The notes under the pieces: generated by a model
What the model saw: the letters and a program-made list of their open reading frames with translations, nothing else
What the model was told of the DNA's origin: nothing
Database searches by the model: none
Program-made: the position numbers and the translations under genes
Virus record (IMG/VR): IMGVR_UViG_2850796239_000008
DNA from: a virus
Lineage: Duplodnaviria > Heunggongvirae > Uroviricota > Caudoviricetes
DNA length: 23,815 bases
Strand: one strand, 5' to 3'
Shown: piece after piece, positions 1 through 23,815 of the stretch
Position numbering within the stretch: position 1 is the first letter of the stretch
Layout: every line of letters begins with the position of its first letter

Positions 1-480
1 TTAAGAACAACGTTTGCAGGATATCGTCACGATGGTGACCCAACGCGATCTTCGTCGCCCCAGTTCCGTTGCGGTGCGATAAAGGATACCGCGACGTAGC
101 CGAGAACACAGTGAGCAAGTGGTTTTGCCCTCTGGAATCTTCTCTTTCACGATACCGTAAGTGTTCTCTTCAACAATCTTGTACTCAACGCCCAGCTTTT
201 CAAGATACTCGGGCAGAACGTGTTCCGGGAAGCCCGGTTGCTTTTGATCGAGGTTAACAGCCACCAGCGAAAAATTGATTGGCGCGCTTTGCTGCAAATT
301 GCGCAGAATCTCCAGCATGGTATAGCTGTCTTTACCCCCGGAGAGGCAAACCATGATGCGATCGCCTTCTTCAATCATATTGAAGTCAGCAATGGCTTCG
401 CCCACGTTACGACGCAGACGTTTTTGTAATTTGTTCAGGTTGTATTGTTCTTTCTTTGTAATTTGTTGATTTTCTTGCAT
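1..480 (-). CDS. ttcA: tRNA 2-thiocytidine synthetase TtcA, 5' portion only; frame breaks after ...TATELG and the gene continues beyond the window edge
   Basis: ATG at 478-480; PP-loop motif SGGKDS ([13 protein letters not shown]). After ...YRTATELG the listed frame reads RRRSRWV...stop at 1-3, while the alternate frame reads [19 protein letters not shown], typical of this ATPase family. Break is at the C-run 58-61. Confidence 0.85.
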
Positions 481-7876: not shown

Positions 7877-8056
7877 ATATCCTGCACGGCCTTCTGCTTT
7901 GTAGAAGGCTTCTTCGCTATCATAATCGCCAGATTCCAGCGCTTCTTTAGCCAGCCAGATGCGTGCCCCAGTGCCTGCATTTGGCTCCAGTTGCTGGAGG
8001 CGTTTTGCATCTTCTAGGAGTAGAGCGATAACGTGTTTTAATTCTGTCTCGTTCAT
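7853..8056 (-). CDS. Hypothetical 67-aa early protein
   Basis: ATG at 8054-8056 with GGTGAG RBS; start lies 1 nt after the stop of the upstream gene, so translationally coupled. Product MNETELKHVIALLLEDAKRLQQ... Confidence 0.45.
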   Translation of the reverse strand: MNETELKHVIALLLEDAKRLQQLEPNAGTGARIWLAKEALESGDYDSEEAFYKAEGRAGYSPGLGGV

Positions 8057-8057
8057 T

Positions 8058-8213
8058 TTACTCACCTGAATGTCTTCCCAACCAACGACGTGCGCCAGCT
8101 TCGGTTTTAAACGTTTTGCTTTTGGTATACGTCATGGCGGTGAATGTGCCGTCTTGATTGGGAAACACGCCACATACCAGAGATTCGTTGTTGCCAAGAT
8201 CGATAGTATTCAT
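8058..8213 (-). CDS. Small prophage protein, 51 aa (YdaF/YdfA-like, DUF1391-type)
   Basis: ATG at 8211-8213; product MNTIDLGNNESLVCGVFPNQDGTFTAMTYTKSKTFKTEAGARRWLGRHSGE matches in length and character the 51-aa Rac-region protein as I recall it. Confidence 0.55.
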   Translation of the reverse strand: MNTIDLGNNESLVCGVFPNQDGTFTAMTYTKSKTFKTEAGARRWLGRHSGE

Positions 8214-8393
8214 GTTGACCCCATTTCCCCTTAACGCCGGGTGGCGGAACGTTTTATCTACTGCGCTTTGTATCAATCAACAACTGCCGTCATGTTCGTA
8301 TGCCTCAGGCTGGCTACTTAGCCCTGTTCAGTGACTGGATAACTCGAGGTATTGTCCTGCCGTTCTCTGGTGGGGCGTTGTTTGGATATGCTT

Positions 8394-8422
8394 ATTAAAC
8401 ACAATTTGTTTTCTTATGTCAA
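8394..8422 (-). promoter_or_regulatory. Leftward early promoter candidate (pL-like): TTGACA-17-TTTAAT with overlapping palindromes
   Basis: Minus-strand -35 TTGACA at 8422-8417, 17-nt spacer, -10 TTTAAT at 8399-8394. Palindromes AACAC-GTAAT-GTGTT (8421-8435) and AAACA-CAATT-TGTTT (8397-8411) overlap the -35 and spacer. Confidence 0.5.
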
Positions 8423-8460
8423 CACGTAATGTGTTTTATGGTGGGTGTCATATGATGATG

Positions 8461-8937
8461 CTACAAAAAAGCCCGCTGATAGCGGGCTGATTGGCATATT
8501 ACTGTGATAGCAAGATCATTATTCCGGTGGGGATTATCTTTAATCCTGCCTCTCAAATATTTTTCTACATACTCATCGATTTCTTTTAGCCGGACTTCAA
8601 ATAGCTCAATCATTCGTTGTTGTTCTGAGCCCGGTAGCTGGTTAAACAACTCAAGAAGTTTTCGTTGGGATTCATTTAACCACAATTCAGAAGATTCCTG
8701 TTCTCCAAAGAGGAGCTCAGGAGGAGATATGCCAAGTGCCTTTCCCAATACGACAGCGTCATGTACTCCAACATTTCTGCTGCCCGCCTCATAGTTACCT
8801 ATACGCGATTGCGTCCATCCGCAGATTTCAGCAAGTTTTCCTTGAGATAAACCAAGCTTCTGCCTGCGCTCTTTAAGACGCATTGCAATTTTGTCATTGA
8901 GCCTACTAGCGGCAATTTTTTCGTTTTCTTTTTCCAT
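8461..8937 (-). CDS. racR: Prophage repressor, XRE-family HTH, 158 aa (RacR-type)
   Basis: ATG at 8935-8937; HTH region LGLSQGKLAEICGWTQSRIGNYEAG; 158 aa; divergent from a Cro-like gene across a 96-bp operator region. Confidence 0.85.
   Translation of the reverse strand: MEKENEKIAASRLNDKIAMRLKERRQKLGLSQGKLAEICGWTQSRIGNYEAGSRNVGVHDAVVLGKALGISPPELLFGEQESSELWLNESQRKLLELFNQLPGSEQQRMIELFEVRLKEIDEYVEKYLRGRIKDNPHRNNDLAITVICQSARYQRAFL
8465..8488 (-). terminator. Rho-independent terminator at the end of the repressor gene
   Basis: Minus strand reads AGCCCGC-TATC-GCGGGCT followed by TTTTTT; the hairpin overlaps the last 8 codons and stop of the repressor ORF. Confidence 0.6.
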
Positions 8938-8947
8938 TGCATCCTTG

Positions 8948-17881: not shown

Positions 17882-18237
17882 ATGCAGTCACGATCACTTC
17901 TTCTTGACACCGGGACATGGGATATCCTGCTTGATGATACCGGAAATCTTGCCATTACTGATAATCCCCATGCGGTAGCTCAGGATGTGGCGTGTGCGTG
18001 CAGTACTTTTCTGGGGAGTGCTGGTACGACTCAACGGCTGGCATACCTTACTGGCCACGCATCCTCGGACACTGGCCCGGCACACAACTGGTGAATGCCA
18101 CTCTGCAACAGGAAGCACTTAAACTGCCGACCGTGAGCGCCGCTGTCTGCCAGGTCACAGCTGATCAAACCCGGACAGTAACAGGTGTGCTGCGTATTAC
18201 AGATACCAATAATGACATTTTTACGGTATTGCTATGA
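17882..18237 (+). pseudogene. Baseplate wedge protein (gpW/gp25-like), split by a frameshift in a G4 run
   Basis: ORFs 17882-18094 and 17992-18237 join as ...ACACSTFLGECWYDSTAGIPYW... if one G is added at 18013-18016; strong RBS CAGGAG before the ATG at 17882. Confidence 0.65.
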
Positions 18238-19475
18238 GTGAAAATAAATCTTTTTCTACCGCAGTGCCCGCTGTACAGATTTCGGATCGCGGGCTGAATG
18301 TGCCGGATGAAGCGGATATTCTGAGCGGCAGGCTTGCTGATTTTTCGGCGGCGCTGGGCGGGGCCATGAGTACCAGTCTGAGCAGTCCGCAGGGACAACT
18401 TGCATCCAGCGAAAGCGCCATTATTGCGGATAAAAACGACCAGTTGCTGTATATCGTTAACCAGATCAACCCTGACTTTTCCAGTGGTCGCTTTCAGGAT
18501 GCAATAGGCAGGATTTATTTCCTGGAGCGCCGCGGGGCCACAGGTACGACAGTAACAGCGACCTGTACCGGGCTGGTTGGCACGCTGATCCCGGCGGGCA
18601 GTATGGCGCAGGATGAGGCCGGTTATAAGTATGTCAGTCAGTCAGACGTCACTATCGGCGCATCAGGGCAGGTTGATGCGGTATTTCTGAATTTGTCCAC
18701 CGGCCCCGTCGGCTGTCCTGTGGGGACGCTGAATAAAATTTATAAGGCAATACCTGGCTGGTCAGGTGTCACTAACGCCAGTGCCGGTGTGCCGGGCAGC
18801 GATGAGGAAACCCGTGCGGACTTTGAAAACCGCCGACGTAATTCAGTTGCCCGTAATGCCCGGAATATTCTGGAAGCCATCCGGGGTGAAATACTCTCCA
18901 CGGTGGAAAACGTGGTGGATGTTTACGTCACCCATAATCCGAAAAAAACAGAACAAAAAGCCGGAGTCAGTCAGTATCCATTAACACCCGGTTCGCTTTA
19001 TGTTGGCGTGTACGGCGGCAGCCCGGCAGATATCGCGGCGGCCATCTGGCGTAAGGCTCCGCCGGGTATTGATATGAATGGCAACACAACGTTCACTGTT
19101 GCAGATAAGGAGTACGATCCGCCGTATCCTGAATACGTGATCAGCTGGCAGACACTCAAACCCGTCAGTCTGCATGTCAGTGTGACGCTGAAAAAAAGTG
19201 ACTACCTGCCTTCAGATATTACCCGACAGGTACAGCAATCCGTGCTGGACGCATTTAATGGTACAGATGGTGGTCTGCGGGCAAGGGTTGCCTCTGTTGT
19301 CTCTGCCGGGCGCTACTATGCCGGCATTTACAAAACCGATCCGGAACATATTGATATTCTGGGCCTTACTGTGAGCCGTGACGGTTCGTCATGGACAACG
19401 GCTGTCACTTTCGGGATAGATGAGATTCCGGTTCTGGATGTGTCGGATATCAGTGTGAAACTCCAGGAGGCATAA
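18234..19475 (+). CDS. Baseplate J-like protein, 413 aa
   Basis: Size and position after the W-like gene; ATGA overlap with the upstream stop. Confidence 0.75.
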   Translation: MSENKSFSTAVPAVQISDRGLNVPDEADILSGRLADFSAALGGAMSTSLSSPQGQLASSESAIIADKNDQLLYIVNQINPDFSSGRFQDAIGRIYFLERRGATGTTVTATCTGLVGTLIPAGSMAQDEAGYKYVSQSDVTIGASGQVDAVFLNLSTGPVGCPVGTLNKIYKAIPGWSGVTNASAGVPGSDEETRADFENRRRNSVARNARNILEAIRGEILSTVENVVDVYVTHNPKKTEQKAGVSQYPLTPGSLYVGVYGGSPADIAAAIWRKAPPGIDMNGNTTFTVADKEYDPPYPEYVISWQTLKPVSLHVSVTLKKSDYLPSDITRQVQQSVLDAFNGTDGGLRARVASVVSAGRYYAGIYKTDPEHIDILGLTVSRDGSSWTTAVTFGIDEIPVLDVSDISVKLQEA

Positions 19476-19476
19476 C

Positions 19477-20082
19477 GTGCAGAATGTGGCTGCCACTGTG
19501 CTTGCGCAGTATGCTGCCAGCCCCCGACTCAATGCCCTCATTAACAGCTTTAACGCAGCGCTTTCCCCCGACAGTTTTATCAGTGATTTTTATGGTCTTA
19601 TCTGGAACATCGATACCGCAGAAAAGTATGGTCTTGATGTCTGGGGAAAGATTGTGGGTGTCAGTCGCCGGCTGACGGTAAAGGACGATTTTAATTACCT
19701 GGGCTTCAGCGAGTCTAGGATGGACACCCCGGTAATGGATGATCCCTGTCCGTTTAATCAGGCACCGTTTTACAACGGAAAATCGGATACCCGGACTGTT
19801 GACCTGTCTGATGCTGTATACCGGCGGCTGATACTGATGAAAGCCATGTCGAACATTACTGACTGTTCCGTTCCGGATATTAACCGGATGCTGAGATTTA
19901 TGTTCGGAAAAAAACGCCGGGCTTATGTTCTGAATAATGGTGGATTGAGGATGAGTTACATCTTTGAGTCCGCGCTCTCGTTGGCAGAACTGGCGATTAT
20001 CCAGTCGTCGGGTGCACTGCCATCCCCGCCGGGTGTTTATGTTTCAGTAGTTTTAAAGGAGTCCCGTAATGAAGGCCAGTGA
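19477..20082 (+). CDS. Baseplate/tail protein I-like, 201 aa (GTG start)
   Basis: GTG at 19477 with AGGAGG at 8-nt spacing; position between the J-like gene and the fibre gene. Confidence 0.6.
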
Positions 20083-21301
20083 TAAACCCCGCCAGCTGGC
20101 GGTCCCCTTTGCGAGTACCGGAGATAAAAACCGTATCCCGGACAAGGCGACACAGCAGACCAGAGAGAGCGGTAATGCTGCGTATGATTCAGGTTTTCCT
20201 CCGGTGACCATGACAGCGGTCTCAGCGGGAGGTATACCGCCACACGGCAAGGATTTTAACGGTCTGATGTACGATATTACCGCAGCAATACGGTTCGCCC
20301 AGGCTGGCGGTTTGTACACGTATAATGCCGGTTTTGCGGGGGCCATTGGTGGATATGCAAAAGGAGCCATTCTCGCCGGAGTCGCAACAACAGCGGTCTG
20401 GCTGAATACCACAGACGATAACCTGACCGATCCTGAAGGCTCCGACAGTGCGGGCTGGGTAAATCTTCTTGAGGATCCGAAAAGGATATTCCTGCGGCAG
20501 AAGAACAATCTGTCAGACCTTCAGAATAAAGGGACGGCACGGGATAATCTTCAGGTTTACAGTAAAGAGCAGTCAGATCAACGCTATGTTCATCGGGAAG
20601 GCGATACCTTGTCCGGTGGACTTACTTTTGAAAACGACTCAACCCTTGCCTGGATTCGAAATACTGACTGGGCAAAGATTGGTTTTAAAAATAATGCCGA
20701 CAGCGATACTGATTCATACATGTGGTTTGAAACAGGTGACAACGGCAATGAGTATTTCAAATGGAGACACCGCCTCGCTGGCGGCCGGGTTAAAGACCTG
20801 ATGAATCTCAAATGGGATACACTAAATATTCTGGTTAATGCCGTCATTAATGGTTGTCTTGGAATTGGTACGACGAATGCGTTAGGTGGAAGTTCAATCG
20901 TTTTAGGAGATAACGATACCGGGTTTAAACAAAATGGCGATGGTCTGCTTGATGTTTATGCGAATGGACAGCGTGTATTTCGTTTCCAGAATGGCAGTAT
21001 CCAGAGTAATAAAGCTGTAAACGTTACAGGACGGGTAACACCGTCAGACTACGGAAACTTTGATGCCCGTTACCAGCAGCGAAATGGTGGCGTGCAGGAT
21101 GTGCGGTATGGTTATGAAATGTATTACAACCCTGGCAGCAACACCGTTTCATGGACGTTTCGCTCACCTTCGGGACACGGGCTGTCAGGGATATCGATAT
21201 CGGATACCGGCCGTAACTCAGCGGATAACGTCAACGGTGTGTATTACCGACCGCTGCAAAAACTGATTAATGGCACCTGGTATAACGTAGCGAGTATTTA
21301 A
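20069..21301 (+). CDS. Tail fibre protein (gpH-like), 410 aa
   Basis: AGGAG RBS; conserved fibre N-terminus followed by a Gly/Asn-rich distal region ([37 protein letters not shown]). Confidence 0.8.
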
Positions 21302-21303
21302 CA

Positions 21304-21849
21304 ATGTTGCATTTAAAAAATATTACTGCGGGTAATCCGAAAACCGTGGAACAATATCAGCTGACAAAACAATATGATGTCACCTGGCTTTTTTCGGAAG
21401 ACGGAAAAAACTGGTATGAAGAGCTGAAGAATTTCGCCAGCGACACAATTAAAATAACTTACACCGGAGACGGTCGCGTGGTGTGGGTCGGTAAGGATGT
21501 GACAGGCATTGAACCCCGTAACGCCAGTGTTATTGAAGTTCCTGATATTACCGCCAACCGCCGCATTACCGCGCCGGGTTACTGGTTTTACCGCAATGAT
21601 GAATTTGTCTTTGACTACAGACTCAAAGCGGAAGATGAGCGTGATGCCCTTCTGGCTCAGGTCAGTGCCCGGACAGGGGAATGGGAAGAAGACCTGCTGC
21701 TGGGGTTAATCAGCGACGAAGATAAAGAAAAGCTGAAAGCCTGTCGTATTTACGCGAAATCACTGCAGGCGATGGATTTCAGTGTCATCACAGATAAAGC
21801 CACATATAACGCCATCAACTGGCCGGAGCGTCCCGATGCCGCAGCTTAA
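21304..21849 (+). CDS. Tail fibre assembly protein (Tfa/gpG-like), 181 aa
   Basis: Starts 2 nt after the fibre stop; C-terminal Tfa-type signature ...AKSLQAMDFSVITDKATYNAINWPERP. Confidence 0.8.
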   Translation: MLHLKNITAGNPKTVEQYQLTKQYDVTWLFSEDGKNWYEELKNFASDTIKITYTGDGRVVWVGKDVTGIEPRNASVIEVPDITANRRITAPGYWFYRNDEFVFDYRLKAEDERDALLAQVSARTGEWEEDLLLGLISDEDKEKLKACRIYAKSLQAMDFSVITDKATYNAINWPERPDAAA

Positions 21850-23113
21850 AGGTGTGATTAAAACGCCCACGGGAGAACCGCTGGACGGCGCAACCATTAC
21901 ACTAACCTCCATACACAACCGTGCAGGGATTCTGAAAAGTGTTTTCAGCCATGTCACCACACAGAACGGGGAATATGACTTCCCCGTTCTGCCGGGTGTG
22001 TACAGCGTTCGCCTGACACAAAGCACACGGCGCCTTTCAGAAATCGGTGTCATCCGCGTTTATGAAGATTCAACGGACGGTTCGCTGAATGATTTTCTGG
22101 GCGCAACTGATATTGACCTGCGTCCGGAATCCCTGAAGAAATTCGAAGAGCTGGCGCAACAGGCGCAGCAGAGTGCCGGGAGCGCAGCCGGAAACGCACG
22201 GCAGACGGCGCAGGATGTGACGGCAGCCGCAACGGCCCGTGATGATGCACAACGTTTTGCGGAGAAAGCCCGACAGGATGCAACCGTCACAGCTGAGAAC
22301 AGAAAGGCCACAGCGGAAGACGTGAAAAGCACGGGGAAAAACGCCGTCTTATCCGGTCAGCGTGCACAGGCAGCCGCAGGTTATGCCCGCGCAGCAGAAC
22401 AGGCCAAAAATGACATTGATGCTGCGCTGACCGGCACTCTGAAAACGGCTAACCATCTGTCTGAAATCGCAGCAGCAGGCGAAAAGGCACAACAGAAGTC
22501 CCGGGATAATCTGGGGCTGAAAAGTGCGGCCACGATGGAAGCACAGAGCGACATTTACGACCGGACAAAAGGCCGTCTGGCGATACCCGGCGCATTCGGC
22601 TTTGGGCGTGCTTTTCTGCCTGAAGATGTTATCCGTTTTGACACTAAGAGTGATTTCCTGGCCTGGGTAAGGAATGCGCTGCCAGGTGAATATTCCGTTG
22701 CTGGCCCCTACGACATCATCATACCCGACACACGGTTTGAAGGGGTGCTCAGCATCCGGTGGACTGATGCACGCCCTGAGACAACAGAACCGAGGTACAG
22801 AGCCAAATCCCTTACTTTTTACGGCATTAACGGCCCCATTTATCACACCCGCTACTGCTACTGGCCCATATCCAGACTGACTGGCTGGGTGAAAATAAAT
22901 ATAACCACAGAAGATATTATTTACAGAATCGTGGCGAGCTCTGTCCGCAACAGATGGGGAGACCCTGACATTGGCGGGCTGATTATTGCTGCGTACCAGG
23001 GAGAAGCTGACGGTGATAAAGTCATCAGACTTGTCAGGGGCGGTCATACAGAGGCTCACGACTGGGACCGGTGGGGATTTCAGTGCCCAGTACTCCCACC
23101 GGAACGTATATAG
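21836..23113 (+). CDS. Side-tail-fibre-like protein, 425 aa: Stf-type N-terminal domain with an atypical C-terminal half
   Basis: N-terminus ...GVYSVRLTQS...GVIRVYEDSTDGSLNDFLGATDIDLRPESLKKFEEL matches the prophage side-fibre N-domain pattern; Ala/Gln-rich coiled segment; C-terminal about 180 aa lack fibre repeats. Confidence 0.7.
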   Translation: MPQLKGVIKTPTGEPLDGATITLTSIHNRAGILKSVFSHVTTQNGEYDFPVLPGVYSVRLTQSTRRLSEIGVIRVYEDSTDGSLNDFLGATDIDLRPESLKKFEELAQQAQQSAGSAAGNARQTAQDVTAAATARDDAQRFAEKARQDATVTAENRKATAEDVKSTGKNAVLSGQRAQAAAGYARAAEQAKNDIDAALTGTLKTANHLSEIAAAGEKAQQKSRDNLGLKSAATMEAQSDIYDRTKGRLAIPGAFGFGRAFLPEDVIRFDTKSDFLAWVRNALPGEYSVAGPYDIIIPDTRFEGVLSIRWTDARPETTEPRYRAKSLTFYGINGPIYHTRYCYWPISRLTGWVKINITTEDIIYRIVASSVRNRWGDPDIGGLIIAAYQGEADGDKVIRLVRGGHTEAHDWDRWGFQCPVLPPERI

Positions 23114-23251
23114 CATCCCCACAATTTTTCATTACGGGATGTTCAGAGCATTCATTACCGGGGTCATATTGCGCCCTGTCCGGGGTGCCGGATGCTCATG
23201 TCTCTGGCGCAATGCCCGGGCTTTTTATTCGCACATCGTGAGGAATGCACC

Positions 23252-23815
23252 GTGGAAATTAAAAAAATCATTAATCCCCGTTATACCGAAAGTGGCGCAG
23301 TAGACTGTGACGTTTTTTTTGACGACAGGGACCAGGCAGTCCCCTACACAGCCACCGCTGATGATGTCGCACCGACGGGTCAGCGAATCTGGCAGGAACT
23401 GCAAAGTGGCAAATGGGGTGAGATAGCCCCATTCACTGTGACACCAGAAATGCTGGAAGCGGCCAGAGAGGCCAGACGTCAGGAAATTGAAGCATGGCGC
23501 ACAGAACAGGAGGCGAAGCCGTTCACGTTTGAATGGAACGGTCGTATCTGGAATGCTGGTCCCGACTCACTGGGCCGCCTGTCCCCGGTAGTCATGCTGG
23601 CAAAATCTGTCACAGCACAAACACATATGGCGTGGAGCGATGCCGATAATCAGCAGGTGAAACTGTCGATGCCGGAACTGGAAGAACTGGCGGCAGCAAT
23701 GGTGCAGGCGCAGGTCGATCGCAACGATGAGATTTATCGCCGTCAGCGGGAGCTGAAGGAAGAGCTGAATAGTCTGAAGGATTTGAATTCGGTTAGGAAT
23801 TTTATCGTGGAATAA
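23252..23815 (+). CDS. Hypothetical protein, 187 aa from GTG; possible fibre-associated chaperone or accessory protein
   Basis: GTG at 23252 with GAGGAA RBS at 8 nt (in-frame ATGs at 23192/23198 lack an RBS); position after the fibre gene; stop at the window end. Confidence 0.45.
   Translation: MEIKKIINPRYTESGAVDCDVFFDDRDQAVPYTATADDVAPTGQRIWQELQSGKWGEIAPFTVTPEMLEAAREARRQEIEAWRTEQEAKPFTFEWNGRIWNAGPDSLGRLSPVVMLAKSVTAQTHMAWSDADNQQVKLSMPELEELAAAMVQAQVDRNDEIYRRQRELKEELNSLKDLNSVRNFIVE

Follow-up and report, generated by a model that had tools for sequence, protein, structure and literature searches.

An apparently split sheath-initiator gene in a prophage remnant and its probable origin in a homopolymer error of a long-read assembly

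Background

Sheath initiators of contractile phage tails have been described in solved baseplates, among them those of Pam3 (gp21; 7yfz), Pa193 (gp35; 9b45) and E217 (gp34; 8env/8eon). In these relatives six copies of the protein occupy the wedge ring, and the beta-hairpin of the protein meets the first sheath ring in a so-called 'handshake', which is the place where polymerisation of the sheath starts (PMC9942802, PMC13450770). Its fold comprises a core that is like the C-terminal domain of the sheath protein, plus the beta-hairpin that makes the handshake.

A second body of literature that touches upon the locus described here concerns the quality of a collection of Shigella genomes. According to a passage in Yassine et al. 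2022, the closed Shigella genomes that Kim et al. had produced with PacBio were left out of their study on account of numerous homopolymer indels, and the first two rows of a table in the same paper place PacBio and Illumina assemblies of identical strains 288 and 67 cgMLST alleles apart (PMC8795385).

We analysed a stretch of viral DNA of 23,815 nt (IMG/VR record IMGVR_UViG_2850796239_000008; hereafter the window), in which a baseplate gene that is intact in close relatives appears as two overlapping ORFs. In the following we describe the gene and its product, and weigh the possible origins of the break.

Results and discussion

Two overlapping reading frames and a single gene

The coordinates of the features discussed in the text are collected in Table 1. 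The frames of the 70-aa and the 81-aa ORF, which overlap, meet at CTGGGGAG (18011-18018), and this is the sole point where the reading that is conserved in the family crosses from one frame to the other. The original prediction had placed the switch at a G4 homopolymer within this octamer and had proposed that one added G would yield a continuous protein of about 118 aa. Both points were confirmed: insertion of one G gives a 357-nt ORF with a product of 118 aa, and this product is identical to WP_001191863.1. At the DNA level the gene in the window and the intact gene of E. coli FDAARGOS_943 are 100% identical except for the one G.

Table 1. Position of the genes, reading frames and sequence elements in the window
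Feature	Position	Strand	Remarks
ttcA, ORF 1-480	58-61	-	C4, relatives C5; TtcA cut to 159 aa
IS600 (IS3-family)	11485-12755		inside replicative helicase gene; splits DnaB / DnaB_C parts
IS1 remnant	~14697-15200		in place of head/sheath/tube/tape-measure module (~14540-15447)
Spike gene	17193..17869	+	G5 at 17417-17421, relatives G6; 80 + 154 aa instead of 225 aa
Shine-Dalgarno AGGAG	17873..17877	+	4 nt 5' of ATG; read from sequence
Sheath-initiator gene (gp25/W-type baseplate protein)	17882..18237	+	356 nt in window, 1 base less than the 357-nt intact gene
Upstream ORF, 70 aa	17882..18094	+	residues 1-45 authentic; 46-70 out-of-frame read-through
Downstream ORF, 81 aa	17992..18237	+	-1 frame relative to upstream ORF; authentic from Glu46 (GAG 18016-18018) to stop
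G4 run, site of missing base	18013..18016	+	relatives G5
Baseplate J/gp47-family wedge gene	18234..19475	+	intact, 413 aa; translationally coupled to sheath-initiator gene

We collected 41 homologues from Salmonella, Serratia, Photorhabdus, Xenorhabdus, Erwinia and other genera in an alignment and derived a profile from it (A2). The join between the two frames sits within FLGECWYD, the best-conserved motif of these proteins, in which G45 hardly varies and E46 never does. Because the join falls in this motif, at an invariant E46, the ORF pair is one broken gene and not a pair of chance neighbours. Each of the 41 homologues is encoded by one uninterrupted ORF (116-124 aa) that keeps the motif in frame. 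The stop of the gene in the window overlaps the start of the baseplate J gene in an ATGA at 18234-18237.

Intact copies are common. Nine complete E. coli genomes contain the region at an identity of at least 99.5%, and each of them is annotated with an intact 118-aa CDS (WP_001191863.1, where the accession was read). The site reads GGGGG in the three E. coli genomes (of three) that were read there, and the other six matches are likewise one base longer than the query. The intact 118-aa protein was found in 825 contigs, and the index of the collection lists it in 1676 blocks. A scan of metagenome contigs for the site, in its G4 or its G5 form, found none.

Identity of the encoded protein

Various kinds of annotation were collected for the intact or repaired protein. 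Its name in PGAP is 'contractile injection system sheath initiator', and it matches PHROG 120, 'baseplate wedge subunit' (E = 7e-36). When the A2 profile was compared with PDB chains, the solved sheath initiators were recovered: Pam3 gp21 (E = 5.6e-11), Pa193 gp35 (E = 9.3e-11), E217 gp34 (E = 1.5e-10) and phi92 gp139 (E = 1.2e-6). The order of the baseplate module in the window is: plug, hub, spike, sheath initiator, Baseplate_J, Phage_Wedge1 and fibre genes. Together these data identify the gene, at the level of sequence comparison, as one that encodes the sheath initiator of a contractile phage tail of the E217/Pam3 type, and they support a role for the protein as the functional counterpart of T4 gp25 and P2 gpW.

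The connection to Pfam families was less straightforward. Precomputed tables assign PF10934 ('Sheath_initiator') to the intact protein and to nearly all homologues; a local hmmscan against Pfam-A gave no PF10934 match for any of the 41 family members, only noise, and scans of the repaired protein against Pfam and NCBIfam gave no match. For PF04965 (GPW_gp25) there was no match either, at E-value limits of 10 (repaired protein) and 1 (the 41 family members), whereas the positive control, P2 gpW, matched this family with E = 2.3e-14. An hhalign comparison of A2 with P2 gpW (a single gpW sequence) yielded a probability of 0.8% over 15 aligned columns. The structural route added little: the AlphaFold (AF2) model of the repaired protein was mediocre (pLDDT 69.7, pTM 0.43), and a Foldseek search of the PDB with this mediocre model returned nothing significant, the best matches being baseplate chains of diffocin and phiCD508 (E ~0.4, TM 0.29).

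The protein had originally been described as a gp25/W wedge protein, with a profile search of the corrected protein against the gp25/W family as the proposed check. That description is right with respect to role, because the PGAP name, PHROG 120, the matches to solved initiators and the V-W-J type of gene order all point the same way. It is wrong with respect to membership of the Pfam family, because the search with PF04965 was negative while the gpW control was found, and because the direct comparison with gpW gave next to no probability; by these searches the protein falls outside GPW_gp25 (PF04965) at the sequence level, and the proposed profile check came out negative.

State of the prophage

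The prophage, which is located at ttcA, is a remnant that retains only baseplate and fibre genes; head, sheath, tube and tape-measure genes are all absent from it. The IS600 copy in the helicase gene matches a copy in E. coli VL7S7 at 100% identity. To the right of the IS1 remnant, homology to intact relatives restarts only at 15447, inside a Dit-like baseplate gene.

Some further observations concern the surroundings of the prophage and of its relatives. An 11-nt stretch, AAAAACCGTGT, is found at 2295-2305 in the window and is missing from VL7S7; as this is no change in the length of a homopolymer, it presumably represents a real difference. The right flank of the prophage in the source record of the window carries a sit/ZnuA-type ABC transporter operon. 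Shigella/EIEC-like strains contain two to three copies of a prophage of the same type per genome, and such copies adjoin ipaH genes, which encode LRR/NEL effectors (locus L003, at 31080-31870, and loci L010, L023, L025 and L026).

One-base deletions in G/C runs

Positions 7992-23815 of the window are byte-identical to CP026875.1 (assembly GCA_002950355.1). We compared the window with VL7S7, its best E. coli relative, and found five clear-cut single-base indels, all of which are deletions in the window and all of which lie in G/C runs of at least five (at 58, 8529, 17417, 18013 and 23037); the remaining few one-base gaps are within poorly aligned, divergent stretches. Counted over runs of at least five bases, 5 of 22 G/C runs are shortened in the window with respect to VL7S7, against 0 of 103 A/T runs (hypergeometric p = 1.1e-4). 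The earlier claim that the break has the same direction of error as those in the spike gene and in ttcA was thereby borne out, all three being one-base deletions in G/C runs in this comparison. The G runs at 17417, 8529 and 23037 carry, in the alignment, the same signature as the 18013 site. With respect to the genes concerned, the short G run at 8529-8532 alters the C-terminus of a repressor-like HTH gene product (158 aa versus 139 aa), and the one at 23037-23040 alters the product of a gene for a tail-fibre N-terminal domain.

The exact 81-aa fragment was found in only eight NCBI records, all of them within CP026805-CP026877 (GCA_0029494xx-0029503xx); one of the eight, CP026840, is cited as S. 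dysenteriae 4 in Yassine et al. 2022 (PMC8795385). The records of this range look like a Shigella set sequenced with PacBio only, and from the adjacency of its accession and from its behaviour we infer that CP026875.1 belongs to the PacBio set of Kim et al. 2018.

Three pairs of loci, each with one of the eight records on one side, in which no substitution separates the two partners proved most informative: CP026805 versus UYIT01000003 (20,251 nt, 0 mismatches, 7 single-base deletions), CP026823 versus CP026807 (~20 kb, 0 mismatches, 17 single-base deletions) and CP026815 versus CP026807 (~20 kb, 0 mismatches, 13 single-base deletions). All 37 deletions occur in the G4-bearing record of the pair, 35 of them in G/C runs, and the 18013 site is among the deletions in each of the three pairs. 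Judged from these alignments the deletions must be consensus errors, because evolution does not yield 7 to 17 one-directional homopolymer deletions with zero substitutions.

For the window locus itself no zero-substitution partner was found, the best partner having 5 mismatches. The exact 413-aa J allele of the window was looked up in other contigs, of which 24 were read: among the nine places listed, the closest relative with this allele shows 5 mismatches over 5,626 nt, and all eight that do not belong to the window's own record have G5 at the site. These same eight places, which include draft assemblies with contigs of ~22 kb, also have G6 in the spike gene.

A different type of lesion was observed in the baseplate J gene of several Shigella loci, where the loss of a 4-nt GTCA tandem copy (reference position 4035 of L001) divides the product into 150 + 251 aa. 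The carriers are L004, L006-L009, L011, L020 and L021; the window does not have this loss. Six of the eight G4 records share it with two homopolymer-clean partner loci, L020 and L021, and by this distribution it is a genuine, shared pseudogenising mutation, in contrast to the homopolymer artefacts.

Origin of the missing base

The reading that we prefer is that the missing G is an uncorrected error of a long-read assembly, and we consider this very probable given the pattern of deletions. CP026875.1 would have been assembled from long reads alone, with G or C runs frequently called too short by one base; a G5 would have been called as G4 at 18013-18016, and the apparent split would not be biological. 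We infer that the real DNA of the strain has G5.

The main rival is a real pseudogene, in which replication slippage in the lineage of the strain took one G from G5 and inactivated the sheath initiator. Several observations make this conceivable: the prophage is already defective (IS600 in the helicase gene, an IS1 remnant and missing morphogenesis genes), and Shigella-type genomes accumulate pseudogenes. The G4 form is moreover not confined to the accession range, as it was also found at the equivalent of the 18013 site in Logan contigs (L012-L018) that stem from seven further runs (SRR17645344, SRR13380270, SRR22190957, SRR18114344, SRR22191007, SRR27639958 and SRR13268782). One of these, L012, shows the same error signature when compared with L027 (0 mismatches, 4 G/C-run deletions). 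Three others (L014-L016, from SRR22190957, SRR18114344 and SRR22191007) carry G4 in an allele that is ~10% diverged and have no other indel in ~1.2 kb, a stretch that holds no second G5 run to judge by; their G4 is ambiguous and may come either from slippage at a natural hot spot or from an artefact of the same kind. A frameshift of the identical kind in ttcA looks genuine in other lineages: nine contigs from ENA metagenome assemblies and Logan, none of them in the CP0268xx range, encode the identical truncated TtcA, and the five longer ones among these are short-read-like, come from an E. coli lineage that is ~2% diverged, and have no other indel. The ttcA frameshift may thus be natural in some lineages, as its alignments suggest, and since it recurs in a ~2% diverged lineage, not every such G/C-run deletion is an artefact. 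In the window itself, the ttcA frameshift may be of either origin. The frameshift in this host core gene had been considered as proof of error, and was dropped as such because the truncation recurs in otherwise clean contigs. Against a pseudogene in the sheath initiator stand the one-directional indels of the window with their limitation to G/C runs, the G5 in all eight other places with the J allele of the window among the matches listed, the otherwise unchanged gene with respect to FDAARGOS_943 and, above all, the same deletion in records of the accession range when set against 20-kb loci that are otherwise identical, a pattern that evolution cannot give. We regard inactivation in the lineage as unlikely. 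A related version, in which G4 is genuine and arose in this strain alone by slippage at a natural hot spot, and in which an occasional -1 slip would still give traces of full-length initiator, appears to us quite improbable as well.

The remaining alternative is that the G run acts as a site of programmed -1 ribosomal frameshifting or as a phase-variable switch, so that two products would be made or expression of the baseplate protein turned on and off. In the G4 allele, L-G-E-C-W-Y would be restored exactly if a single tRNA slipped by -1 on G-GGG, and leakiness at a low level is conceivable. Programmed frameshifting was nevertheless rejected: the gene is an unbroken ORF throughout the 41 homologues, close relatives carry G5, an X-XXY-YYZ heptamer is absent from the site, and the 82 nt downstream fold no better than shuffled sequences (z = -1.0). 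The known slippage-based switches also act on runs that are far longer than 4-5 nt. The probability that we would give to regulated slippage of this kind is close to negligible.

Consequences for annotation

With an assembly error as the preferred explanation, the breaks in the sheath-initiator and spike genes should be taken neither for pseudogenes nor for evidence that the prophage decays, and the same probably applies to those at 8529 and 23037. Annotations that are built on CP026875.1 inherit the breaks, as exemplified by the 79-aa 'hypothetical protein' WP_134795764.1. The importance of the observation is one of quality control only, the gene being of an ordinary type of baseplate protein that has already been characterised. 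A real private mutation, if true, would also matter little, because the prophage is without head, sheath, tube and tape-measure genes.

Comparison with known systems

The deletions in the window resemble those of the unpolished PacBio assemblies of the Kim et al. 2018 set: they are one-directional single-base deletions concentrated in G/C runs of 4-7, and such deletions vary between assemblies of otherwise identical DNA. No point of difference was noted.

With respect to the protein, T4 gp25, P2 gpW, Mu gp46 and TssE of the T6SS (all PF04965) share the role of the window protein, but a sequence relationship to it is undetectable. The likeness to P2 lies in the order of the genes, since spike, sheath initiator and baseplate J equal V-W-J, and in the length of the product (115 aa for gpW, 118 aa for the window protein). 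Close to the window protein are also the systems of the E217/Pam3 type. The neighbours of the gene in the window carry Pfam families that take their names from these phages (the E217_GP41 hub, the Pam3_gp18 plug, Baseplate_J and Phage_Wedge1), and the sheath initiators of the E217/Pam3/Pa193 type (7yfz, 9b45, 8env/8eon and phi92 gp139) are of the same size as the window protein (~110-125 aa). The sequence identity between the solved initiators and the window protein is low; the matches of the A2 profile to these chains cover most of the length, with E-values from 6e-11 to 1e-6.
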